64,000 nucleotides of DNA from Candidatus Saccharimonadia bacterium (GTDB lineage Bacteria > Patescibacteriota > Saccharimonadia > Saccharimonadales > 2-12-FULL-41-12): the NCBI GenBank assembly GCA_963717365.1, contig OY970327.1, positions 203,599 through 267,598 on the forward strand, given 5' to 3'. Below, one piece after another: positions 33,449 to 56,385 of the stretch; the stretch's first letter is position 1, and each line of letters starts with the position of its first letter. The notes below the pieces were generated by a model. That model did not search any database. It saw nothing but the letters and a program-made list of their open reading frames with translations, and had not been told where the DNA came from. The translations under genes were made by a program, and so were the position numbers.

Positions 33449-34111
33449 TTATTTTTTTGCATGACGGTTAACTATGCCGCCGCCCACCATACCCGCTACA
33501 GTGCCAACTACGCCTATACCAACAAACATTAGTACCATTGCAACCATTCGTCCCTGCCAAGTTAGAGGATAAATATCACCGTAGCCTACTGTAGTGGTAG
33601 TTACTGCTGACCACCATAAAGCATCAAAGAAGTTATTAACAGATGGATGAACATCAGCTTCGACGGTGTAGAAAGCAGTGGCGCCGGCCAGTACGATAAC
33701 AATCACAACAACTGAAACATGGGCATAGCGGAACATTGAATCAATTGTTTCTGTAGAATAGACGGTTATATTTTTAATTCGGGCGATTAGTCGAAAAATG
33801 GTAATCAATCTAAGGATACGAAGAGCTCGGAGCGACTGGAAGACTCCCTCCGAAAAGGGTATTGACGCTAATAGCAAATACCAATTACTTTTCCAGTACT
33901 TTGCTTTGTTCTGGGCAGCGTGAAGGCCTGTGAAAAAATCGAATAGGAAAATGCAGGCAATGACCTTATCTATTCCATAAAACCATGCTCGAGTAGTGTT
34001 GGACAAATTGCTACTAAATTCGTAAATCAGTAAACCAACACTCAGCACACCAAGTAATGCCAGTATAATTTCATTCCAAATTGATTTTTGGTAACGGTGT
34101 GTCCACAACAT
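33449..34111 (-). CDS. Compact voltage-gated-type K+ channel (6-TM layout, 220 aa)
   Basis: K+ selectivity filter TTTVGYGD. The S4-like helix LRALRILRLITIFRLIARIK has Arg/Lys at every third position. Six hydrophobic segments are present. Confidence 0.85.
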   Translation of the reverse strand: MLWTHRYQKSIWNEIILALLGVLSVGLLIYEFSSNLSNTTRAWFYGIDKVIACIFLFDFFTGLHAAQNKAKYWKSNWYLLLASIPFSEGVFQSLRALRILRLITIFRLIARIKNITVYSTETIDSMFRYAHVSVVVIVIVLAGATAFYTVEADVHPSVNNFFDALWWSAVTTTTVGYGDIYPLTWQGRMVAMVLMFVGIGVVGTVAGMVGGGIVNRHAKK

Positions 34112-34200
34112 TTTGAAATAGTACTATAACAATATTAAAAATCCTAGAAACTTCTAGATAAACCATCTGTTATAACTGCCAGTAAGCTATACTGAATAGC

Positions 34201-34647
34201 ATGAAACCACAAGTTAGTCTTGTTAGGGCGATTGGTAGCGAATTCGGCGCACGAAAGTTGAAGTCTGTGCTACTAGTGACAGGGATTATTTTAATTATAT
34301 TTGTGGGGATAGCCATATGGTTAATTACCATGAGTGCATGGTGGTGGCTCTTCGCAATACCAGTTATCTTATTCAGCCTGTTTAGTATTGCAGCTTACCT
34401 GATCGCAAGAATTGTAATAAAAAGACTTCGCCCCGATCTGACAAAGTCACAAACATCAGCCGTATCTAGTTTTGTTGATAAGCTCGAACGAGTAGCAGAT
34501 AATTTGCAGACGCCGATGTTTATTATTGTTTTCAAAGTGGTCCGCGATATCATCCGTCCGCGTAGCAAACCGTTCGTTCAAACAATAGTGGAAGATAGCT
34601 CAACTTTGCATAAAGATCTCTTAGAACTACAAAAAAACTTTAGTTAA
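34201..34647 (+). CDS. Hypothetical two-TM membrane protein with a cytoplasmic helical tail
   Basis: 148 aa with TMs VLLVTGIILIIFVGIAIWLI and WWLFAIPVILFSLFSIAAYLIARIV. It ends 30 nt upstream of the second receiver gene. Confidence 0.55.
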   Translation: MKPQVSLVRAIGSEFGARKLKSVLLVTGIILIIFVGIAIWLITMSAWWWLFAIPVILFSLFSIAAYLIARIVIKRLRPDLTKSQTSAVSSFVDKLERVADNLQTPMFIIVFKVVRDIIRPRSKPFVQTIVEDSSTLHKDLLELQKNFS

Positions 34648-34676
34648 ACCGCTCAGCTTGTATTAGAATCAAGCAC

Positions 34677-35117
34677 ATGGACTTATCCACTCAAACAAAA
34701 AATATAGTTATCGTAGAAGATGATTTGGCTTTGGCAGAGATTTATAAAACAAGACTGGAGCTAATTGGTTACACTTGTTTTCTTGCATACAACGGTATAA
34801 CTGCCCTTTATTTCATCCAGAAACAAATACCCGATCTAGTTTTGCTAGATATTATGGTGCCTGACATCTCTGGAGATCAAATTTTAGCCATTATGAGAAA
34901 AAGTAACTGGGGCAAGCAAATTCCCGTATTTGTTATTTCAAACTTGAACGAGTCCGAAGCACCAGCCGGTATGCGAGAGTTAGGGATTGCCGGCTACACC
35001 GTAAAAGCAAATTTGTCGAATGATCAAATTGATGGTATTGTTAACAATATACTGCGGCCAGAATTAGCAACAAATACAGAGGGCAAAGACCCTATGTCTC
35101 CCGTTTCATTGCCATAA
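34677..35117 (+). CDS. Stand-alone response-regulator receiver protein, paralogue 2
   Basis: IVIVEDD, DLVLLDIMVP, ISNL and VKANLSNDQID. It is collinear with the 30509 product and has no output domain. Confidence 0.9.
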   Translation: MDLSTQTKNIVIVEDDLALAEIYKTRLELIGYTCFLAYNGITALYFIQKQIPDLVLLDIMVPDISGDQILAIMRKSNWGKQIPVFVISNLNESEAPAGMRELGIAGYTVKANLSNDQIDGIVNNILRPELATNTEGKDPMSPVSLP

Positions 35118-35308
35118 GTTAAACCATTCTTTATTAACAATGCGATTGACCGACGATCGATACAATATTCTCTTATTTAGAGTTTCGTAAATTAATTTCA
35201 ACTGCTTACGTATTGCTTTCAAGTTATGATTTTCTAAGGTCGGCTTCCAATTCTTTCTCATATTGCTACGCAAACATAACACTTTTTGTTGTATGTAAGG
35301 AAGTTAGC

Positions 35309-35800
35309 CTAATTATGCGCTACAAGACATTGTTTGACGACGGGACGCCAATCAATGGTAGTCCCCACGATGATGTTATCCAACTCTCCAATGCTTATCC
35401 ACTTTGGCGTTAATCCGGCCGCCTTTTCATAATCATCTAGCTTTATGTTAGCTACATTAACTCCATAATAATCACAGCAATAATATAGAAGTAGCGATTG
35501 GGCATGGCTTACAACGTTTGGCTTATCAAGTTGTTGCCATGTAAAAAAACCACTTGCTACATTAATTAATTTAGGATTTGCAACTATAACACCTGTTTCT
35601 TCTTTTAGCTCACGAATAACTGCGTCTGTTGGTTTTTCACCAAGGTCTATCCCGCCCCCAGGTAAATGAAATTTGCCGTTTTCTTTAACTAATAATATTT
35701 TTTCTTCACGTATCACAATTGCATAGGCTGAAGGTCTCCAAACTAAGTCTGACGCGGTAACCTCATATTCATTGCCATGTATGTCTTTACTAGTGAGCAT
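35309..35800 (-). CDS. NUDIX hydrolase
   Basis: The Nudix box GGGIDLGEKPTDAVIRELKEETG fits GX5EX7REUXEEXGU. Confidence 0.85.
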   Translation of the reverse strand: MLTSKDIHGNEYEVTASDLVWRPSAYAIVIREEKILLVKENGKFHLPGGGIDLGEKPTDAVIRELKEETGVIVANPKLINVASGFFTWQQLDKPNVVSHAQSLLLYYCCDYYGVNVANIKLDDYEKAAGLTPKWISIGELDNIIVGTTIDWRPVVKQCLVAHN

Positions 35801-35921
35801 AATCTTATACCATCATAACAAATTTAAGTATATTCCTATTGGATATAATATACTTAAATTATATTCAAAGATAAAATGGCTATGCTTGCAAATCTATCCG
35901 GGGTGGCCTAAGCTCTGATTA

Positions 35922-37013
35922 ATGGAGCGTCAACCGAAATCGGAAATTATTTTATCGCCGCACGTTCGGTTTGCCGAAGATTGGCAAGAAACGTTAAAAG
36001 ATAACGAACTAGCCGCACGGTTTAATGATCTTATTGGTTTTACCCAAGAATCAGTAAGTGGGTCAGATTATCCATGGATACATGACCGCAAAGAGGTTGG
36101 TATGCGCTGGCAGCATTTGGTTAACCTGCTGGGCGACGCGGCTCGGTCACACAGCCACCCTTTGTTTCGGCGTGGCCAAGGCTGGTGCGACGAAGAAAGA
36201 ACGGCACAAGTTCTAGAGCCAATCGATTATCGTAGTTTTGACGCCAGCTTTATAGAAAATGCGCTTATTTTAACTCATTCACTCGCTGTGCAGCAAAAAC
36301 AGTCAACTAGCCCTGGTTTATCCGTTAGCTTGAACATACTTAATAATATGGATGACATGAAAGACCCTGAGTTGGTAGATTTCTTTACCAAGTCATTTGA
36401 TTTGCGAGATTTGGCTGAACCGACCGATACGCTTATTGACGAAATGACGTTAGAAGATTTTAAAAATTTAACTAAAGAAAAACGAGAAGGACTTATCGAC
36501 CAGCTATTTGAAATGGCTTTCAAGACAGAAGAATATGGTAATGGATACGGCTGGTCACGTCCCCCTCAAAAACAAAAATATCTGGATGAACGTAGCAAAC
36601 TGATAGAGTATTCTGATCTAGTAGAGTATGGAACGGCCGAAACATCTGAGATTGAGCAGATTCTGGATGAAAGAAAAACTGCCGAAATTGCACGTCTGCG
36701 CCAAGAACGTCCAGATTTTGGTAAGAAACCTGACGACTTTGAGTCCTTACCAGACAACTTAAAAACATGTGTTACATCGATGTTTGAGTATTTTGATCAT
36801 ATGCGTGAACGATACAATGTGATTGGCATCGACACGCACAGCATGAACAGAATGGGTTTTACGAATGGTGATTTAGAGAGTCTTAAGCATGCCGGTATTC
36901 TAATAAATGAAGAACAGTCTCTGATGCCCGATGGCTACATGTGGAGTTACTTGCTATCCCAGCCATACTACGAATGCTGGGTATCGCGACATTACCCCGT
37001 AGAGTCTGAATAG
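35922..37013 (+). CDS. Hypothetical acidic cytoplasmic protein (363 aa)
   Basis: Long ORF with no TM segment or signal peptide. I recognise no family. Confidence 0.5.
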   Translation: MERQPKSEIILSPHVRFAEDWQETLKDNELAARFNDLIGFTQESVSGSDYPWIHDRKEVGMRWQHLVNLLGDAARSHSHPLFRRGQGWCDEERTAQVLEPIDYRSFDASFIENALILTHSLAVQQKQSTSPGLSVSLNILNNMDDMKDPELVDFFTKSFDLRDLAEPTDTLIDEMTLEDFKNLTKEKREGLIDQLFEMAFKTEEYGNGYGWSRPPQKQKYLDERSKLIEYSDLVEYGTAETSEIEQILDERKTAEIARLRQERPDFGKKPDDFESLPDNLKTCVTSMFEYFDHMRERYNVIGIDTHSMNRMGFTNGDLESLKHAGILINEEQSLMPDGYMWSYLLSQPYYECWVSRHYPVESE

Positions 37014-37063
37014 TATTTACATACGGATTACTATGAGTTATAGTAGTTTTCACTTAACAATTT

Positions 37064-37219
37064 AAAAAATATACAGAAGCAGCGAGAGATCTAGCTCATT
37101 GACCTGCTAGCAACCTACCATTTGGTAAGGTGCTCCATCTAGTTCCTGGTTAAACCTGGAAGAGATATTTTTCTTACGAAGAATCCTTTTCTTGGAAAGT
37201 CCAGGGAAAGGATATTTTT
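37064..37219 (+). promoter_or_regulatory. SAM-I-class riboswitch-like leader (aptamer about 37064-37172 plus terminator/SD-sequestering hairpin 37183-37219)
   Basis: Aptamer elements:
- P1: AAAAATAT (37065-72) pairs with ATATTTTT (37165-72).
- P2a: GCAG pairs with CTGC, around a GA-rich internal loop and a CTAG-containing loop.
- P3: AGCAACC (37109-15) pairs with GGTGCT (37129-34) with a bulged A, as in the SAM-I core GGCAACC...GGUGCC.
- J3/4: contains CTAG, a possible pseudoknot partner for the P2 loop.
- P4: hairpin at 37143-37161.
Expression platform: hairpin ATCCTTTTC/GAAAGGAT followed by ATTTTT and then the ATG.
Context: a second copy lies upstream of metK. Confidence 0.7.
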
Positions 37220-38176
37220 ATGTCAAAACAATTCGAGGTGCTCAGCGCCGTCCACGGTATCGCGCCGCGCAGCGATGAGCTGCTGCGCTTGGGTGGTGAT
37301 GTTGATCGGGGTCGTGCTTCAGCGCTTGAATATGATGAGCTCCTACAACATGAGTCAGAAGAGTGGCTGAATGTTCAGCAAGTAGAAGGCATTGATCGCG
37401 TCTCTGCTGGAAAGCTGGATTGGCAGGATCACCTGCGCCCGATTGTGCAGGCAACCGACGGTTTTAAGCCAGGCATTGATAATGCTCAAGTGACGCGGTG
37501 GTATGAAACAAATACGTTTTATCGGCGACCAACCATAACAAGTTATCTGAATGTAGATTCTAGTAAGCTTCCAGGTGAATACGGCTCGAGTATTGATTTA
37601 TTGGCGCCATACTCATTTGCATCGTTGTGTGACAATGCATCTACAGGCAAGACTTTGGAACTAGTAACCGATTTATATGATCAAATTATCTACCATTATG
37701 TTAACAAGGGAGTCGGTCGTATTGTTTTAAAAGAATACACGCATCAGCGGTTAGAAGATAGAATTCTGAGTAACGAAAGTCTAAAGGAGGTCACTATCCT
37801 TGCCAACAGATATCAGAGCACAGAATTTGCTTATCTTACTTCAGAGACATCAGTTCCAAAGGACGCACCGCTAAACCTAGGTCTTGAAATCACACCGCAT
37901 ACAGCTAAAGCGCTTAGTTTGGTTCCGTATCTCAATAATGGTCTTGAAGGACGAAATGTATGGACATCGGTAGTCCATGCTGATTCTACGTTGCCAGACG
38001 TGTCTATGGCATCTTTCTGGAATAAGTATATTTTGCGTCAGCTAGGAATCGCTAAGCTGATTCTAACTAATACCGTTGATTTTCAGCATATACCCTTGGA
38101 CTATGCCAAAGAGAAAATTAAATGGTTAGCCGAGGAGACGCGTCAAACCAAAAGCCAACTAGGAGATTTGTCATGA
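37220..38176 (+). CDS. MetE N-terminal-domain-like protein (non-catalytic barrel of cobalamin-independent methionine synthase) encoded as a separate ORF
   Basis: 318 aa. TRWYETNTFYRRP parallels the MetE N-domain KWFDTNYHY motif, and LILTNTVDFQHIPLDYAKE parallels ...SCSLLHSPIDL.... No His-x-Cys or Cys zinc ligands are present. The stop overlaps the next start (ATGA). Confidence 0.65.
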   Translation: MSKQFEVLSAVHGIAPRSDELLRLGGDVDRGRASALEYDELLQHESEEWLNVQQVEGIDRVSAGKLDWQDHLRPIVQATDGFKPGIDNAQVTRWYETNTFYRRPTITSYLNVDSSKLPGEYGSSIDLLAPYSFASLCDNASTGKTLELVTDLYDQIIYHYVNKGVGRIVLKEYTHQRLEDRILSNESLKEVTILANRYQSTEFAYLTSETSVPKDAPLNLGLEITPHTAKALSLVPYLNNGLEGRNVWTSVVHADSTLPDVSMASFWNKYILRQLGIAKLILTNTVDFQHIPLDYAKEKIKWLAEETRQTKSQLGDLS

Positions 38177-39330
38177 GTGAATTATTAAGAACACAAGAAG
38201 TTGGTAGTTTGGCTAAACAAAGTTGGCGTGTGCAGCCGTTGCAGGGATTGGGGGTCAGGGATGAGCATATAGACGAAGCGGTTAACTGGGCTGAACGTTT
38301 AGGCGAGACACCAGAAGAAGCAAACGAGGTATTAAGAACGGCGCAAGAGGAGGGAACGCAGTTAAGCTCAGAAAGTGCTGACTCAATCAAGAATCTAGCG
38401 GCTCGTTATGCTATTCGGCTGCAAGAAAAAGCTGGCTTAGATATACTGTATGACGGTGAACAAGACCGGCCAGAGATGTACCAAAGCGCGGTCGAAGATA
38501 CCGTTGGCTTTGAACCAAGAGGCCGCCTGCGCGCATTCGATAATCGGTCTTTCTTAAAATCAGCCGTTGTCGGCCAGCCCGGCATTACTGCGCCGTGGTA
38601 CACCCAGGAGTTTCAGCGTATTCGGCAACTTACCGATAAAACGATAAAAGTTCCTGTCACCGGTGCATATACCGTGGCTGATTGGTCCTTCGATGAGTAT
38701 TACCAGAAATCAATAACCCTTGGCGGTAAACAGTTGGCTCCAAAGGAAGCAAAACGGCAGTTTGTGCTTGATGTTGCAGAGCAGGTTGTTCGTCCAAATA
38801 TAAAATCGTTACTAAAACAAGGCGCCGAGTGGATTCAAATTGACGAGCCAGCGGCTACCACCAAACCACATGAAGTTGCTTTATTTGTTGAATCATTCAA
38901 CCGTTCAATACAGGGATTAGCAGGCCGGTTCAGCGTGCATATTTGTTTTTCGGATTACAGTCTCTTGTTCCCTCACGTTCAACAGTTAGAAAATTGTGCT
39001 CAATTCTCGCTGGAATTTGCTAACAGTGACGCAAAATCTTTGGGCAGAGACAAGGCACATCGACCGGCGTATGAAATCCTGGGTAAGTTTGCTACTGATC
39101 GGCCGGATATTGGAATCGGACTTGGTGTAACTAGTATTCATGAGAATCAAATAGAATCGCCAGAGTTAGTACGGGATCGTATTCTTCGGGCAGTTGATAT
39201 CATCGGCGATGCCGCAAAAGTATACCCGTCTCCGGATTGTGGCTTGCGCACCAGAAGCTGGGATGTTGCTTATAAGAAGTTTTCAGTAACAGTAGAAGGC
39301 GCGTGTTTAGCACGGAATGAATTCGAATAA
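38173..39330 (+). CDS. metE: Cobalamin-independent methionine synthase catalytic domain (core-MetE, Meth_synt_2); start set at MSELLRTQEVGS
   Basis: The zinc ligand set is conserved: VHICFSDY (His-x-Cys), FSLEFANSD (Glu) and SPDCGLRTR (Cys). WIQIDEPA and LDILYDGEQDRPEM are also present. AGGAG lies 8 nt upstream of ATG 38173, and there is a 4-nt overlap with the upstream ORF. Confidence 0.85.
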   Translation: MSELLRTQEVGSLAKQSWRVQPLQGLGVRDEHIDEAVNWAERLGETPEEANEVLRTAQEEGTQLSSESADSIKNLAARYAIRLQEKAGLDILYDGEQDRPEMYQSAVEDTVGFEPRGRLRAFDNRSFLKSAVVGQPGITAPWYTQEFQRIRQLTDKTIKVPVTGAYTVADWSFDEYYQKSITLGGKQLAPKEAKRQFVLDVAEQVVRPNIKSLLKQGAEWIQIDEPAATTKPHEVALFVESFNRSIQGLAGRFSVHICFSDYSLLFPHVQQLENCAQFSLEFANSDAKSLGRDKAHRPAYEILGKFATDRPDIGIGLGVTSIHENQIESPELVRDRILRAVDIIGDAAKVYPSPDCGLRTRSWDVAYKKFSVTVEGACLARNEFE

Positions 39331-39334
39331 GTAT

Positions 39335-39535
39335 TTAAATATGTAGAATTGTAAATATTTTGTTGATCAAAAGGGCCGGCCATACCGCCGATTGCAGGAA
39401 AGCCAAGACGACTTCTCCAAAACCTTCGGCTTTGTCTAAAAAGTAAACCAGGGCTCCAATATATGTCACAAAAAAGGCAAACGCCGGTGGGCCGCCCTTT
39501 TGAACTTTAATGAAATTTTTTTCGTGTTTTACCAT
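39335..39535 (-). CDS. Small two-TM membrane protein (66 aa)
   Basis: FAFFVTYIGALVYFL and VVLAFLQSAVWPALLINKIF are hydrophobic helices. GGAGG-like aggaggtat lies upstream of the ATG. Confidence 0.45.
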   Translation of the reverse strand: MVKHEKNFIKVQKGGPPAFAFFVTYIGALVYFLDKAEGFGEVVLAFLQSAVWPALLINKIFTILHI

Positions 39536-39686
39536 TATGATATACCTCCTATTTCAACAATATACTCTGATTTTATAAGATATCAATCATGATTATAGAG
39601 AATAGAATTACAGGTAAAAAGTTACTATCACACTAATTAGGTTATTGTGTTATGATTTATCAATAACCGTAAGCAGGAGCATTGGG

Positions 39687-41501
39687 GTGCAGTTAATAAA
39701 CCAGTTACAAACCAGGACAAAACAGCTAGTAATTTTTTCTATAGTAATTACCATGATAGCAAGTGGAGTATTTATTCCTCGTGCGTTTGGGGCAGGCGGC
39801 GGACCGCCAAGCTGCGAAAACGGTATCCCCGGGGTATCATTTAGCTTACAACCAGCTACAAAAGGCGTTGGCACGCTGGAAGTCTCTTTAGATGGTCAAT
39901 ACAGCGACCCTTGTGACGATCCAATTGTTGATTACGCTTGGAACTTTGGCGATGGAAGTACTGCTCACGGTGTTTCGGTTACGCATATATATGGCGTAGG
40001 TACGTTCCGTCCCACGTTAACCATCACTGATGCTAGTGGCGCAACTAATACAGCAACATATCGCAACGATATAGTCGTTAAGGCTACTAACCAGAACCCG
40101 ATCTTTAATGACAGTAGTTACGAAACATTCCATCAAAATTATCTTGACATTGACTTGAAGCCACTGGCATCAGACCCTGACGGCGACAACATTAATGATA
40201 GCTACTACTTAGTTGATGCATCATCTAACCACGTTAAAACAGACAAAGGTTACATATCTCTTAATTCTTACGCCGGTACACTCCGCTACTCTGCAATTAA
40301 CTATAATCCTACCGGCCAAGATATAATAAATATTGGTATCAAAGATGGATTTGGTGGCACCGATACAGCGCAGATTACCATTAACCTACACTCCTATGTA
40401 ACAGGAGTAGACGACACAGCTACTACCTATTCCGGTACACCAGTGACTATCAATGTAGCTGCTAACGACTACTCGTATTACGGTGAAGCCGTAACTGTGG
40501 CTAGGTACGCATACGAACAGACGAATGGTACAGCCACCGTTAACGCTGATGGTACTATCACTTTTGTTCCAGCCGCCGGCTTTGTTGGCACGGGCAGTTT
40601 TAGATATGTAATTTATAGCTCAAATCCTGCTATGAATGCGGTGAATCATGCCTATGCCTATATAGATGTTCGTCCGGTTCCTAACTACGCGCCAGTTGCA
40701 GTAAATGACAATTTAAATGTGGGCGAAGATTCCAGCGGTACCATTAACGTCCTGGCTAACGACAGTGATCAAGATGGTGATGCACTCTCATCAAACATAA
40801 CTACTGGGCCAGTTAACGGTACTGCTAGTATGTCGCCAGCTGGTTTACTGAGCTATACCCCGAATGCTAACTTCTATGGAACGGACACCGTGCAATACCA
40901 AGTTACTGACAGCAAAGGTGCTGCCAGTACTGCTACCGTAATTATTGGGGTAAGTTCAATCAATGATGTGCCAGCAAGCAGTAATGACACAGCCAGTATT
41001 GCCGAGGACAACAACGTAAGCATAGCTGTACTTAGCAATGATTCAGACGTTGAAGATGGAACCAATTTAACGGTTCAAATAGTTAGCAATCCTGCTCACG
41101 GCACGGCTACTGTGAACAGTGATAAAACCATAACTTACGCACCAAAAGCTAATTTCAATGGCAATGATAGCTTTACCTATAAAGTAACCGACAAAAATGG
41201 TGCAACCAGCACTTCCACGGTAAATATAACCGTTACCTCTGTTAATGACGGACCTACGGCAGCTTTCACCGGTACGCTAAAGCGAAACGGCACAGCTACA
41301 TTAAATGCCAGCACTTCTCACGACATCGACGGTCAAATCGCCAGCTATACATGGAATTTTGGCGATGGCCAAACCGCAACCACTACTAGCCCAACCACTG
41401 ATCACCGTTACACCGGTAAAAATTCAAGCTATCAAGTAACCTTGACTGTCACTGACAATCAAGGTGCTACCGCCACAATTGTGCGGACTATAGCATACTA
41501 A
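39687..41501 (+). CDS. Secreted adhesin-like protein with terminal PKD-like domains and internal cadherin-like/VCBS-type repeats (start set at the GTG after AGGAG)
   Basis: - Signal/anchor: LVIFSIVITMIASGVFIPRAFG.
- PKD: WNFGDG motifs occur near both ends (YAWNFGDGSTAHG and YTWNFGDGQTATT).
- Repeats: APVAVNDNLNVGEDSSGTINVLANDSDQDGDAL, INDVPASSNDTASIAEDNNVSIAVLSNDSDVEDG and VNDGPTA.
- Start: AGGAG lies 7 nt upstream of GTG 39687. Confidence 0.8.
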   Translation: MQLINQLQTRTKQLVIFSIVITMIASGVFIPRAFGAGGGPPSCENGIPGVSFSLQPATKGVGTLEVSLDGQYSDPCDDPIVDYAWNFGDGSTAHGVSVTHIYGVGTFRPTLTITDASGATNTATYRNDIVVKATNQNPIFNDSSYETFHQNYLDIDLKPLASDPDGDNINDSYYLVDASSNHVKTDKGYISLNSYAGTLRYSAINYNPTGQDIINIGIKDGFGGTDTAQITINLHSYVTGVDDTATTYSGTPVTINVAANDYSYYGEAVTVARYAYEQTNGTATVNADGTITFVPAAGFVGTGSFRYVIYSSNPAMNAVNHAYAYIDVRPVPNYAPVAVNDNLNVGEDSSGTINVLANDSDQDGDALSSNITTGPVNGTASMSPAGLLSYTPNANFYGTDTVQYQVTDSKGAASTATVIIGVSSINDVPASSNDTASIAEDNNVSIAVLSNDSDVEDGTNLTVQIVSNPAHGTATVNSDKTITYAPKANFNGNDSFTYKVTDKNGATSTSTVNITVTSVNDGPTAAFTGTLKRNGTATLNASTSHDIDGQIASYTWNFGDGQTATTTSPTTDHRYTGKNSSYQVTLTVTDNQGATATIVRTIAY

Positions 41502-41578
41502 GACCTACTAGTTTTTTTGAAAGAGCATCTGCGTCGTAGAACGTACCTCCCATACGCTTGATAAGTTGAGCCTTAAAA

Positions 41579-42511
41579 CTAAAAATTATCGGTGTAAAGT
41601 CGGCTATCCCACTTGTTATCACGAACATGCGCATCAACGGTTGTGCCGGCTTGGTTTGAAAATTGCATAAGGCCGTTTCGGCCAAGTTCTTCTGTCATGA
41701 TAATTCCGATAGATTCTGACCGGCCATAAGGAGTGTCATGCTCTATTGTAGATGAGTCATCGACTATTCCTTCCTTAAGTCTGGCGTTAACACCAGCTAA
41801 ACGATCGTGTAATTGGTCAGCATCAAAAATGTAATCATTATTTGGAGGTGAAATAGCAATGTCAGCAGATCCTTTTCGTGTATCTTTTAATTCAATAGGA
41901 AACTGTGTTGGCGCTGAAACAAATTCGGCTGGCCGGTTTGCAGTGTGGCTGCCGCGCATTGCACAATCAAAGGCTTCATTTAATTCCTTGGTAGAAAATA
42001 ATAGACGATGATCACGGTCAACATAACGGTCAAATCCTCCGCCCTGACCATGATAATCAAGAGCGGGGAAGATAAGCGCATTCCCTAGGCTCTGGGCTTG
42101 AGTGTACTGAAGCGTGATCGGATTCTTTTTTTCGGTTTGGCCTGGGTCTAATGCAAACGCCGCTATAACAAACTGCGGCATACCTAGTTTTTGCAAACGA
42201 TAAAAGTTATCGATGATCTCAAGCACTTTGTCTGGAGCATCTGGTACATGTTCTGGCCGTGGGGTAACCTTACGCAGCTCCGCAAGGGTAGTGGGGATAT
42301 TTTCTGCGTCGTTAGCGATTCCTACCAAATAACTGCCAGCAGTTTGAATACCGATAAAGCTCTTAAAGCCCCCGCCACCTCGTGTTTTAGGAAGTCCGTC
42401 TTCCCGCAGTTCGCGGTATACGCCGCGTTGGCCCGATAGCCACTGACGACTTGCTTCGGGATCACTGCAATCTGCAACGTTGCTAACTTCGCCATATATA
42501 GGGAATATCAT
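41579..42511 (-). CDS. Hypothetical protein (310 aa)
   Basis: Long ORF. The only in-frame start is ATG 42511, with a stop 25 codons upstream and no clear SD. There is no TM or signal peptide. Gly-rich motifs RGGGGFKSF and HGQGGGFDRY are present. I recognise no family. Confidence 0.5.
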   Translation of the reverse strand: MIFPIYGEVSNVADCSDPEASRQWLSGQRGVYRELREDGLPKTRGGGGFKSFIGIQTAGSYLVGIANDAENIPTTLAELRKVTPRPEHVPDAPDKVLEIIDNFYRLQKLGMPQFVIAAFALDPGQTEKKNPITLQYTQAQSLGNALIFPALDYHGQGGGFDRYVDRDHRLLFSTKELNEAFDCAMRGSHTANRPAEFVSAPTQFPIELKDTRKGSADIAISPPNNDYIFDADQLHDRLAGVNARLKEGIVDDSSTIEHDTPYGRSESIGIIMTEELGRNGLMQFSNQAGTTVDAHVRDNKWDSRLYTDNF

Positions 42512-42690
42512 GGCGTTTGGACCAGAACCAACGATCCCGTATCGTTGTGAGGTTCCATGAGATTCGGCTGTTAACTGAGAACTCGCTCAGACTCATACCC
42601 GCTTGCGGCTGGGAAGTTTGCAATTACAGTACTATTAAACTCTGCTGGATTAACACTTATACACATAATAATTAAGTAACACAAAAATGA

Positions 42691-43173
42691 TTGAATCGCA
42701 ATAATATATTTAAAACACTTGAACTGTTGAATCAAGGGAATATAATACAGGATATTAGTACCATAAAAACACATGTTGACGATGCCAGTGTGACAGATTT
42801 TATTAATGCCGTACCAGATAAAGTAAAAAAGCAGGATAGTTTTATGTTACTTGAACTGTTTAAAAAAATAACTGGTGAGCAGCCCAAAATGTGGGGAAGC
42901 AGTATTATTGGTTTTGGTCAGTATCACTATAAATCTGAGCGAAGCAAGCAGGAGGGTGACTGGCCACTGACTGGCTTTTCACCACGAAAACAAAACTTAA
43001 CCCTCTATATTATGCAGGGGTTTGAAGATTACGCAGGCTTACTTAAAAAACTTGGCAAACATAAGATAAGCGTCGGTTGTTTGTATATTAATAAATTAGC
43101 AGATGTCGACATGGCTGTTTTAGAAGAACTAGTAAATGAGTCATTTATTCAAATGAAAAAGGTACACTCTTGA
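42691..43173 (+). CDS. DUF1801 (YdhG-like) domain protein
   Basis: VTDFINAVPDKVKKQDSFMLLELFKKITGEQPKMWGSSIIGFGQYHYKSERSKQEGDWPLTGFSPRKQNLTLYI matches my recollection of the DUF1801 pattern. The TTG start is uncertain. Confidence 0.6.
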   Translation: MNRNNIFKTLELLNQGNIIQDISTIKTHVDDASVTDFINAVPDKVKKQDSFMLLELFKKITGEQPKMWGSSIIGFGQYHYKSERSKQEGDWPLTGFSPRKQNLTLYIMQGFEDYAGLLKKLGKHKISVGCLYINKLADVDMAVLEELVNESFIQMKKVHS

Positions 43174-43184
43174 TTGGGTGATAG

Positions 43185-43582
43185 ATGTATAATCAAGATA
43201 TGAAGATGAAAAGTGTATCCGGTATCATCTGTTTAGTAAAAGATTTAGAGAAAACAACAGAATTTTATAAGACGTTGGGTTTTGATTATAAGAAAAATGT
43301 GCCGGGTGTGTCGGCAACAGCATATTTGAATTGGTTCTGGATAGAGTTTCTGCTTGAGGATAAGGTCATAACCAATGAATTTAAAAGTGATGTCATAGTT
43401 CCTAATAAGGGCGCTGGCCAATACACCATATAAACGTGGAAAATATTGATAACTTTTACGACACAGTTTTAGCAAAGGGTTTAAAACCTTCCAATCAACC
43501 ACAGGACTTTCCATGGGGACACAGAGAATTTGTGCTTATTGACCCAGACGGTTATAAACTAGTATTCTTTAGTAAGATATAA
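43185..43582 (+). pseudogene. VOC/glyoxalase-fold gene interrupted by a frameshift (apparent 1-nt deletion between 43409 and 43430)
   Basis: Frame A ends ...VPNKGAGQYTI* at 43431-43433. Frame A-1 is open from 43409 and reads ...IHHINVENIDNFYDTVLAKGLKPSNQPQDFPWGHREFVLIDPDGYKLVFFSKI* (stop at 43580-43582). That is the expected C-terminal half of the same fold. Confidence 0.7.
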
Positions 43583-43669
43583 TCACAAGTATTGGAAAAG
43601 GGATCAATCCTAAGGTCTGTGGTCTTGCGTTGTTTTTATATAATTCAATAAAGTCTTATACTATACGCC

Positions 43670-44380
43670 ATGTCTGAAAGATTAATGCAACCTAACCGTC
43701 GGTACCGTAATTTTGCCGTTGCAACAATAGCTGCGCTAAGTGTTGGTGGATGTACAACATCTGAAACAGAAAAAACAGTTGATCCTATCCCCAAGACTAC
43801 TATAGAAGATTACAGACTCTCAGATAATTCTGTGCAAAAAGCGAGAAAAACTCTGGCTCAACTGGCTATAAAAGGACGGGCACCAAAAACAGGCTATGAA
43901 CGCGAGCAGTTTTCAAGTGGGTGGGCAACGATTGACGGGTGTGACGTTAGAAACACTATATTGCAGCGCGATTTGACTCAAGAAATTTTAAAGAGTGATA
44001 ACTGTACTGTCTTAATGGGAACATTACAAGACCCTTATACTGCCGAACAAATTGATTTTCATCGCGGTATTGGCACCAGTGATGACGTACAAATTGATCA
44101 CGTTGTTGCACTGAGTGATGCCTGGCAAAAAGGCGCTCAACAACTCGATGTCAGTGAACGAGCCAAGTTTGCTAATGACCCGCTTAATCTACTAGCTGTA
44201 GATGGGCCAACTAATTCAAGCAAGGGCGATGGCGACGCGGCGACATGGCTGCCGCCAAACAAAAGTTATCGCTGCAGTTATGTTGCCCGTCAAGTAGAGG
44301 TTAAAGATAGGTATGAATTATGGGTTACATCTGCAGAACACCAGGCAATAGTTAGAGTTTTGACATCTTGTAGTAATTAA
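43670..44380 (+). CDS. Secreted lipoprotein nuclease (HNH/DUF1524-type)
   Basis: Lipobox LSVGGC is present. GYEREQFSSGW...DGCDVRN, VQIDHVVALSDAWQKGA and NLLAVDGPTNSSKGDGDAATWLPP match the DUF1524 extracellular endonuclease pattern. Confidence 0.75.
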   Translation: MSERLMQPNRRYRNFAVATIAALSVGGCTTSETEKTVDPIPKTTIEDYRLSDNSVQKARKTLAQLAIKGRAPKTGYEREQFSSGWATIDGCDVRNTILQRDLTQEILKSDNCTVLMGTLQDPYTAEQIDFHRGIGTSDDVQIDHVVALSDAWQKGAQQLDVSERAKFANDPLNLLAVDGPTNSSKGDGDAATWLPPNKSYRCSYVARQVEVKDRYELWVTSAEHQAIVRVLTSCSN

Positions 44381-44437
44381 TAAGTAACGATTGCTCACAT
44401 AACCTCATCAGATATAACAAACTTTTTACAGGTTGTC

Positions 44438-45265
44438 TTATTTCTCTAATATAGTTCGGACACGAGTTACGGCAGCAATTGCACTTTCATAGTGTTTTAT
44501 TTCATTAGCCATAACTACTTCCGGAGCATCCAAGTTTTTAAGACGATTAATGCGGTCTTGTGTTCTGTTTGCAATATGGATCATTGAGAGTAAAAAATGT
44601 TCTAAAAATGGACGGGATTCATAGCCGTTTAAGGGTAATTCTGTGTCGATTAGTACATCAAGTTTAATAATCATCGTTTCTTTGCCACTGCGAATGGTAT
44701 CAAGGGTTTCTTTTGTATTGTAAATTACACCATGTGTTATTGCATGCTCAAGAGCTATCCCTGCCAAGTACTTTCCTGCAGCAATATTTATTTTACTCGG
44801 TCTATCATCGTAAGATGACGTCGATCGTTTGTGAACCCTGTCTTTATCAAATGCTGCGTAAGATGCAGATACTGTTCCTGGAACTAATAAATCAGTAGTA
44901 TTCAAGCCCAGTTTTAACACTGTTGCAGAAATAGGCCCAAACAATGATTGTCGGTAGGCGACTAATTCGGGTGGTACTGTTTCAAATGATGAAACACCGG
45001 GTACCGGTAGTATGGTTGCGTGTTCCTCGCCATACGGCGAAACAGTTAATTCTTCGGTAGCAATACTGTTAGGTATATCTTTAGTCAAACTATCTATAAA
45101 ATGCAACGCACGTGCTCGTATATAAGGAAGCGGTTTATCTTCCAGGCCAGGGTGAAGTCCCTGTTCCAAGACAGCGTTTAAGGTAGCATTATAAAATAAT
45201 CGCGCAGTTTCGGTAAAATCCGCCTGCATCTCCATATTGGTCGGTAAACCGTCTCTTCTTGGCAT
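44438..45265 (-). CDS. Hypothetical protein (275 aa)
   Basis: Long ORF convergent with the nuclease gene. No TM or signal peptide, and I recognise no family. Confidence 0.5.
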   Translation of the reverse strand: MPRRDGLPTNMEMQADFTETARLFYNATLNAVLEQGLHPGLEDKPLPYIRARALHFIDSLTKDIPNSIATEELTVSPYGEEHATILPVPGVSSFETVPPELVAYRQSLFGPISATVLKLGLNTTDLLVPGTVSASYAAFDKDRVHKRSTSSYDDRPSKINIAAGKYLAGIALEHAITHGVIYNTKETLDTIRSGKETMIIKLDVLIDTELPLNGYESRPFLEHFLLSMIHIANRTQDRINRLKNLDAPEVVMANEIKHYESAIAAVTRVRTILEK

Positions 45266-55080: not shown

Positions 55081-55272
55081 AAATATAAAGAGTGCAGCGA
55101 GAGATCTAGCTTTTTGACCTGCCAGCAACCAATTTGTCTATGCGTGAAGGCCGCGGAAACAAGCAACGGTGCTCCGACTAGTCCCGGGAATTCCTGGGAA
55201 AGATATTGCCATTTACAAAAGTGACTAATGCGTATCCTTCTCTTGAATTATATTTGGGAGAAGGATATTTTT
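55081..55272 (+). promoter_or_regulatory. SAM-I-class riboswitch-like leader upstream of metK (second copy)
   Basis: - Core: the same core as the 37064 leader (GCAGCGAGAGATCTAGCT..TTGACCTGC.AGCAACC ... GGTGCTCC..CTAGT).
- P3: longer than in the first copy.
- P4: TCCCGGG/CCTGGGA, with a compensatory change relative to copy 1.
- P1: AATAT/ATATT.
- Expression platform: hairpin TATCCTTCTC (55233-42) / GAGAAGGATA (55258-67), then TTTTT, then ATG 55273. Confidence 0.7.
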
Positions 55273-56385
55273 ATGCCAATCATTAAACTTTTTACCAGTG
55301 AATCTGTTTGCGCTGGTCATCCGGATAAAATCTGCGATGCTATCAGTGACGCGATTGTGGACGCCGCACTGGCTCAAGATCCGCATAGTCGCACTGGTAT
55401 TGAAACCGTCGCCGGTGCTAACCAGATCAGCCTGTATGGTGAGATAAAAACGACTGCCAAAATAAACTTCGAGGAAATTGTTCGTGGTACCGTTAAGCGG
55501 CTTGGCTACACGGTACCGGCGTGGGGCTTTTCGCAGGAATCTATTTTTAGCAATGATGTTCACCAGCAATCGCCAGAAATTGCGCTGGGCGTGGATCAAG
55601 ACGGTGCCGGCGACCAAGGCATGATGTTTGGTTATGCCTGCACTGAAACAGAAGAACTGCTGCCGTTGCCCATCGCTTTAGCGCACGCTTTAGCAAAACG
55701 AATCGATGATTCACGAATTAGCGGCAAACTAGCCTGGCTCCGCCCGGACGGCAAAGCTCAAGTGACTATCCGTTATGAAGATGACGTACCGGTAGCAGTT
55801 GAAAAACTGGTGGCCGCGGTGGCTCACGATGAAGCGACCGATGCGGCTACAGTTAGAAAACAGGTAATCGAGACTATTTTTGTTCCGATTCTAAAAACAT
55901 ACAAGTTACCGCTGCCAGCTGATGAAGACATTGTGGTGAATGGTACCGGCTTGTGGCATATTCCGGGACCTGAATCTGACGCCGGCTTAACGGGTCGTAA
56001 GATCGTAGTTGATACGTATGGCGGTTATGCTCGGGTTGGTGGCGGTGCTTTTTCAGGTAAAGATCCCAGTAAAGTCGACCGTTCGGGCGCCTACGCCGCC
56101 CGCTATATTGCCAAAAACATTGTGGCCAATAAGCTAGCCACAAAGTGTGAGGTCGGTCTGGCCTACGTTATCGGCCAGCCGCTGCCCTTAATGCAGACAA
56201 TTGAAACTTTTGGCACGGCAAACGTCAGTGACGAAGAACTACACGCCTTTAAGGACAAGCTGATAGATACGTCGGTGAAGGGAATTATTGACCGGCTTGA
56301 TCTGGCTCGGCCAATTTACAGCCAGACTTCTGCCTACGGACACTTTGGCAAAGCCGAGCTACCATGGGAGCAGATAGTCGTCTAG
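55273..56385 (+). CDS. metK: S-adenosylmethionine synthetase (start at MPIIKLFTSES, not the upstream ATG at 55228)
   Basis: FTSESVCAGHPDKICD, GAGDQGMMFGYA, GGGAFSGKDPSKVDRS and AYAARYIAKN are present. The 15 upstream codons of the longer ORF lie inside the leader hairpin. Confidence 0.95.
   Translation: MPIIKLFTSESVCAGHPDKICDAISDAIVDAALAQDPHSRTGIETVAGANQISLYGEIKTTAKINFEEIVRGTVKRLGYTVPAWGFSQESIFSNDVHQQSPEIALGVDQDGAGDQGMMFGYACTETEELLPLPIALAHALAKRIDDSRISGKLAWLRPDGKAQVTIRYEDDVPVAVEKLVAAVAHDEATDAATVRKQVIETIFVPILKTYKLPLPADEDIVVNGTGLWHIPGPESDAGLTGRKIVVDTYGGYARVGGGAFSGKDPSKVDRSGAYAARYIAKNIVANKLATKCEVGLAYVIGQPLPLMQTIETFGTANVSDEELHAFKDKLIDTSVKGIIDRLDLARPIYSQTSAYGHFGKAELPWEQIVV

Follow-up and report, generated by a model that had tools for sequence, protein, structure and literature searches.

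The 64,000-nucleotide stretch of DNA analysed here (the window) derives from a Candidatus Saccharimonadia bacterium (assembly GCA_963717365.1, contig OY970327.1, positions 203,599 to 267,598), whose genome, of the Saccharibacteria type, consists of one contig of 1.19 Mb. The window carries on its + strand two open reading frames (ORFs) that correspond to the two halves of cobalamin-independent methionine synthase (MetE): ORF1 (37220..38176; 318 amino acids), the N-terminal-barrel subunit of a probable split MetE, which is without a zinc site, and ORF2 (38173..39330; 385 amino acids), the catalytic zinc subunit. The two frames overlap by four nucleotides in an ATGA sequence, in which the ATG of ORF2 (38173-38175) is interlocked with the TGA stop codon of ORF1 (38174-38176). 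The ribosome-binding site of ORF2, read from the sequence as AGGAG (38161..38165, + strand), lies within the 3′-end of ORF1 at a distance of 7 nucleotides from the ATG. An alternative in-frame ATG at 38122 would lengthen ORF2 to 402 amino acids; the start at 38173 is preferred because homologues of ORF2 begin at that position, with the consensus MxExLxTQEVGS. The same gene structure (ORFs of 318 and 385 amino acids, the ATGA overlap and the AGGAG ahead of ORF2) had been described in an initial annotation of this DNA, and every element of it was found again in the sequence. The two genes would be cotranscribed, and the translation of ORF2 would be coupled to the 3′-end of ORF1.

ORF2 matches the Pfam family Meth_synt_2 (PF01717) at 7.9e-27. 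Its best match in NCBIfam is PRK04326, “methionine synthase,” with 232 bits, which is below the model cut-off of 406, and TIGR01371, the model of fused MetE, scores 86.5 bits (cut-off, 930). The zinc ligands His256-x-Cys258, Glu281, and Cys356 are all present, in agreement with the complete zinc site that had been attributed to this protein, as are the homocysteine ligands Ser12, Glu96, and Asp224; the functional assignments follow Price et al. (2021; PMC7857596). All seven residues, together with Trp171, are invariant or nearly so among 116 close homologues and 77 split-family sequences. ORF2 therefore has the length (not more than 400 amino acids), the Meth_synt_2 match, and the zinc ligands by which the catalytic component of a split MetE is recognized. 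The distance between Ser12 and Glu96 is greater than in fused MetE by ~30 residues, which fall at about residues 20-60 (38230-38350 of the window); this additional segment, which is charged and helical, is shared by the entire split family.

The identity of ORF1 emerges from comparisons of fold and profile, since its matches in NCBIfam are weak and confined to archaeal MetE-like models. An AlphaFold2 model of ORF1, with a predicted local distance difference test score (pLDDT) of 90.3, aligns with residues 1..360 of Streptococcus mutans MetE (2nq5) over 295 residues (VIA-align Z 25.3; root-mean-square deviation 3.0) and with the equivalent N-terminal range in every other solved MetE; the fold search also returned a Methanosarcina mazei methyltransferase and UROD, both with lower Z. 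A profile constructed from 22 homologues of ORF1 (A1) matches the N-domain of solved MetE structures at ~1e-5 and matches 107 of 110 fused MetE proteins, and at other loci orthologues of ORF1 score above the Pfam Meth_synt_1 cut-off (66.7, 64.1, and 42 bits). Homology to the N-terminal barrel of MetE, the property that distinguishes the partner gene of a split MetE, is thus evident in both the fold (Z 25.3) and the profile matches. ORF1 contains a single cysteine (Cys137) and no HxC motif, and its segment R93-W-Y-E-T-N98 is the counterpart of the KWFDTN motif of fused MetE. Because the results for fold, profile, Pfam, and zinc ligands coincide, ORF1 is assigned to the N-terminal barrel and ORF2 to the catalytic barrel. 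This assignment bears out two proposals of the initial annotation, namely that ORF1 resembles the N-domain without zinc ligands and that the pair represents the N- and C-terminal barrels of MetE. A separate observation concerns the first ~70 residues of the ORF1 family (15-82; 37220-37430 of the window), for which the opening part of the catalytic barrel of fused MetE (~425-510) gives a better alignment than the N-barrel does; this segment may be a relic of barrel duplication that has been kept in the split form.

Alignment with full-length MetE places the end of ORF1 at approximately residue 340-375 of the ~770-residue fused enzyme, and Gly11-Ser12 of ORF2 at the GSFPQ motif (~441-449). Therefore, the break falls within the linker between the barrels, and most of this linker is absent: for ~40-70 of its residues in fused MetE, neither ORF has a counterpart. 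In 4 of 40 related genomes the two genes again lie side by side in this order, at identities of 30-46% for ORF1 and 61-64% for ORF2, and the overlap of four nucleotides recurs in two of these four (L002 and L003). A scan that took one genome for each species yielded 80 loci. In 77 of them, the catalytic gene starts where an ORF with a match to the ORF1 profile ends; of the remaining three, two are cut off just there. The bacteria among the 80 loci include Patescibacteria, Actinomycetota (Gaiellales and Rubrobacteraceae), WOR-3, Coatesbacteria, and Armatimonadota, and the archaea include Bathyarchaeota, Thermoplasmata, Nitrososphaerota, Thermoproteota, and Halobacteriales. Named homologues belong to Candidatus Saccharibacteria and other Patescibacteria. 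A search for longer proteins revealed, as fused relatives, just ordinary MetE at 23-28% identity, the nearest with 74 bits.

In a quick maximum-likelihood tree, a branch of 2.3 separates the split family from the fused C-domains. The protein from the window falls in a Saccharibacteria clade (Shimodaira-Hasegawa-like approximate likelihood-ratio test, 100) within a Patescibacteria clade (95), and ORF2 groups with archaeal loci that carry the same gene pair. Split metE genes also occur on contigs of metagenome-assembled genomes labelled as Gammaproteobacteria (L022, L023, and L025), Sphingosinicella (L030), and Acidobacteriota (L071). The tree puts these genes inside the Patescibacteria, Actinomycetota, and Nitrososphaerales clades, and the labels are probably errors of binning or labelling rather than signs of gene transfer.

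A model of the complex of ORF1 and ORF2 gave an ipSAE (a score of predicted interaction) of 0.84, as compared with 0.00 for the best of three controls; 58 of 80 solved complexes attain the ipSAE mark, and so do 2 of 110 mismatched pairs. At least 94% of the contacts agree among the runs, and the pLDDT of the partner is at least 84. This result may simply reflect the likeness of the pair to fused MetE, because structures of the fused enzyme have been solved. Of the 32 invariant residues of ORF1, 10 lie in the modelled interface, where 3.2 would be expected (p = 4e-4); among these 10 are N98, F100, Y101, and R102 of its KWFDTN-like motif. Adjacency of the two genes, another mark of split MetE, takes the form of the four-nucleotide overlap here and is seen in 77 of the 80 loci. 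In the modelled complex, the two barrels would bind to each other as subunits and assemble face to face, like the two domains of fused MetE.

The pair is preceded by a regulatory leader. The aptamer of a SAM-I riboswitch (S box, RF00162; SAM, S-adenosylmethionine) extends over 37066..37171 on the + strand and matches the full model (1-108) with 58.5 bits against a gathering cut-off of 44.4. Upstream of it, at 37016..37044 (+), is a promoter-like site (TTTACA, a 17-nucleotide spacer, and TATAGT; 10/12 in a consensus scan), which is a pattern match only. The aptamer is followed by a putative expression platform (37183..37219, +), a terminator-like site made up of a 14-pair hairpin (37183-37213) and a subsequent U run. 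The 3′-arm of the hairpin contains the ribosome-binding site of ORF1, AAAGGA (37207-37212), and the hairpin is present in both the minimum-energy and the centroid folds of 37060-37235 (z = -4.3). By a combination of termination and concealment of the ribosome-binding site, the riboswitch and hairpin would shut off the operon when SAM is plentiful. At eight other loci (L002, L003, L018, L019, L022, L025, L026, and L040), a riboswitch of the SAM-I family likewise precedes the pair or the operon containing it.

Gene linkage leads in the same direction. The SAM synthetase gene metK is located in the window outside the operon (55228..56385, +; TIGR01034, 452 bits, above the cut-off), and it is directly downstream of the split pair in two other Saccharibacteria (L019 and L021). 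The riboswitch and the linkage to metK both point to the supply of methionine and SAM as the role of the pair. In an operon of Levybacteria, the pair is flanked by a gene resembling methylenetetrahydrofolate reductase (MTHFR) and, on its downstream side, by two Cys_Met_Meta_PP genes. The MTHFR-like gene adjoins the pair in ~24 bacterial and archaeal loci. It is non-canonical and scores just under both Pfam MTHFR cut-offs, and the profile of its alignment (A3) matches the structure of a mycobacterial-type methylenetetrahydrofolate reductase (7wmw; 1.7e-10) and an uncharacterised structure (3ijd; 2e-43). Members of alignment A3 occur at L017 (139-1074) and at L022, L024-L026, L028, L047-L049, L054, L060, and L061. 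The linkages to the riboswitch, metK, MTHFR, and transsulfuration genes support a predicted methionine synthase that uses a reduced methyl-pterin.

ORF1 and ORF2 are therefore proposed to be the two subunits of a SAM-regulated split MetE, with a probability of roughly 0.8. ORF2 would bind zinc and homocysteine and make methionine, which would feed MetK, and ORF1 would close the cleft that holds the methyl donor. Several observations weigh against this proposal. Split MetE was still listed as “predicted” in GapMind 2026 (PMC13759103). ORF1 has no match in a Pfam scan with E-values of up to 1, and hence falls short of the trusted cut-off of Meth_synt_1 that characterizes the partner in a split MetE. 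Among the folate contacts of Thermotoga maritima MetE (Trp539, which stacks on the pterin, Glu583, Lys104, Arg493, and DMV; PMC539065), the pterin-binding Glu583 is replaced by Thr in 75 of 77 split-family proteins, and DMV by EMY in all 77; Arg493 corresponds to Arg125, a position occupied by K or R in the family. The enzymes that would supply the substrates also appear to be missing. No methylenetetrahydrofolate reductase was found in this genome with PF02219, PF19345, the MTHFR-like protein of L017, the A3 profile, or the weak MTHFR of the related genome G023. The empty answers of the searches with our own queries (the L017 protein, the A3 profile, and the own-query search of the relatives) are weak, because these had no positive control genome. 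Neither AdoHcyase (PF05221), LuxS (PF02664), PNP_UDP_1/Pfs (PF01048), nor Cys_Met_Meta_PP (PF01053) was detected in the genome, and FolC has matches only below its cut-off. Across 40 relatives, the sole MTHFR match is a weak one to PF02219 in G023, a carrier of split MetE; it is a 285-residue protein (L099:1063-1920) with a marginal score (26.8 bits against a cut-off of 24), and neither the genome of the window nor the other three carriers of the pair yielded a homologue. Of 41 related genomes, three (G004, G009, and G010) contain AdoHcyase, and all three are without split MetE; conversely, AdoHcyase gave no match in any of the five split-MetE genomes.

Three other explanations of the locus can be considered. 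Two half-size genes in tandem bear a superficial likeness to a fused metE that was recently broken by a frameshift or nonsense mutation. However, ORF2 is equipped with a ribosome-binding site and a start of its own, the split is kept at identities of 30-64% in relatives and recurs at 77 of the 80 bacterial and archaeal loci, no fused MetE more than 28% identical was found, and the missing linker residues have no counterpart in ORF1 or ORF2. Such a pseudogene is refuted by the conservation of the split and can be dismissed with near certainty. The view of the initial annotation that the split is no simple frameshift is upheld in this way, as the alignment and the survey of relatives that it had called for placed the break in the inter-barrel linker (fused ~340-375 versus ~441-449) and turned up the split pair in 4 of 40 genomes, with no close fused form found. 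It is also very improbable that the pair is a zinc-dependent thiol methyltransferase of the MetE/UROD superfamily acting on a substrate other than homocysteine. That superfamily does include further methyltransferases, as the lower-scoring M. mazei methyltransferase and UROD in the fold search recall, and no source of homocysteine was found in the genome; by contrast, the homocysteine-binding residues Ser12, Glu96, and Asp224 are invariant, the operon is under a SAM riboswitch, and metK, transsulfuration genes, and an MTHFR homologue are its neighbours in other lineages.

A third explanation retains the methionine synthase but dispenses with methyl-folate of the cell's own making: ORF1 would serve in docking or closure for a different donor, or methyl-folate and homocysteine would both be derived from the host. 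The absence from the search results of any type of MTHFR and of any homocysteine-forming enzyme in the genome, the restriction of AdoHcyase among the related genomes to those without the pair, and the exchange of the pterin-contacting Glu for Thr throughout the split family speak for it. On the other hand, Trp171, the equivalent of the stacking Trp539, is invariant, and the K/R-W-x-x-T-N motif of the N-barrel is kept, including the contact to the pterin O4 (Lys104, which is Arg93 in ORF1). Family members carrying the Thr and EMY signature are encoded beside an MTHFR homologue. A corrinoid-protein donor, as used by the core synthases MesA-C, is unlikely because a search of the genome for the B12-binding domain (PF02310) gave no match; a search for PF02574 was likewise empty. 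GlyA and FolD are present in the genome, and therefore a folate pool exists. Overall, this third explanation is unlikely, although less so than a non-homocysteine substrate. For the split MetE proposed here, a pterin of the 5-methyl-tetrahydrofolate type is somewhat favoured as the methyl donor. The cell would either import this pterin or produce it with an as yet unrecognized enzyme, and homocysteine would come from outside or via an unrecognized route; uptake of both from the host is the simplest guess. The initial annotation had fairly treated the methyl donor as a question, given the “predicted” status in GapMind 2026 and the lack of a methylenetetrahydrofolate reductase match. It is tempting to speculate, though with considerable doubt, that Saccharibacteria keep a SAM-controlled split MetE while seeming to be without methylenetetrahydrofolate reductase and a homocysteine route, so that they would rely on host substrates or another methyl donor, and that the Glu-to-Thr and DMV-to-EMY changes mark a different binding of the donor.

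Apart from the leader and the pair, the surroundings have little bearing on methionine. None of the neighbouring genes at 33449-45265 of the window is related to it, an upstream orphan gene of 363 amino acids has no homologue beside the pair in relatives, and no terminator-like site was found after ORF2 on the + strand. The gene after the operon (39645-41501) encodes a methionine-unrelated 618-residue surface protein with Big_9, cadherin-like, and PKD repeats, which is probably an adhesin.

No paper on MetE in Saccharibacteria or in the candidate phyla radiation was found in the literature. The present assignment fills an annotation gap, since the 318-residue gene would otherwise be called hypothetical because of its lack of a Pfam match. 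In addition, it indicates that split MetE, so far described chiefly from archaea, is frequent in Patescibacteria as well as in several other bacterial phyla, and the SAM riboswitch, metK, and the MTHFR homologue provide independent support for the prediction that split MetE is a methionine synthase. Host-dependent Saccharibacteria have almost no amino-acid synthesis, yet the last step to methionine is kept, which raises the testable question of where homocysteine and the methyl group come from.

Among the known systems, fused MetE (EC 2.1.1.14; TIGR01371; structures 1XPG, 2NQ5, and 1U1H) shares with the pair both barrels, the zinc ligands (His/Cys/Glu/Cys), the homocysteine ligands (Ser/Glu/Asp), the pterin-stacking Trp, and the K/R-W-x-x-T-N motif of the N-barrel, and the model predicts the same face-to-face arrangement. 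By contrast, it is one polypeptide of ~750 residues, whereas the window encodes two polypeptides that are missing the inter-barrel linker, with a catalytic part only ~25% identical to that of the fused enzyme, Thr in place of Glu583, EMY in place of DMV, and the additional ~30 residues near the N-terminus of ORF2. The core synthases MesA, MesB (core-MetE; Deobald, 2020; PMC7005905), MesC, and MesD resemble ORF2 in being single-barrel catalytic proteins of ~340-390 residues with a zinc site. However, MesA-D work without an N-barrel partner, using corrinoid proteins or, with oxygen, MesX, while the split pair always has its adjacent partner, and for this reason the pair is not a stand-alone core synthase. 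Glu96 is kept in ORF2, where MesA and MesC have Gln, and the genome gave no match for a B12-binding domain; no search was directed at MesX.

The closest counterpart is the arrangement that Price, Deutschbauer, and Arkin (2021, PLoS Genet; PMC7857596) named split MetE. It was reported mostly from archaea, with one bacterial example, and its members include Pyrococcus furiosus PF1268/PF1269, Halobacteria, Thermoprotei, and Sulfobacillus sp. hq2; PF1268 and PF1269 form a complex, methyl-pterin donors were predicted, the N-barrel component was noted as hard to detect, and the presence of an N-barrel partner set the group apart from the core synthases MesA-D (PMC7857596). The pair in the window differs from the described examples in its setting, a Saccharibacteria-type genome of ~1.2 Mb with SAM-I riboswitch control, in the divergence of ORF1 beyond the reach of Pfam Meth_synt_1, and in a genome in which neither methylenetetrahydrofolate reductase nor a homocysteine-forming enzyme was found. 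The initial annotation had presented the pair as out of the ordinary and set it beside stand-alone core-MetE; this framing does not hold, as the pair belongs to the split MetE described by Price et al. (2021), a system common well beyond this genome. The pair has the same two adjacent genes, each for a protein of not more than 400 amino acids, in which the N-barrel-like gene precedes the Meth_synt_2 catalytic gene; its zinc and homocysteine sites are complete, and its catalytic subunit groups with the archaeal paired loci. The pair is thus a real, conserved two-subunit MetE of the kind described in 2021, for which a role as a SAM-regulated methionine synthase is well supported, and the supply of its substrates in Saccharibacteria is the sole part with some novelty.

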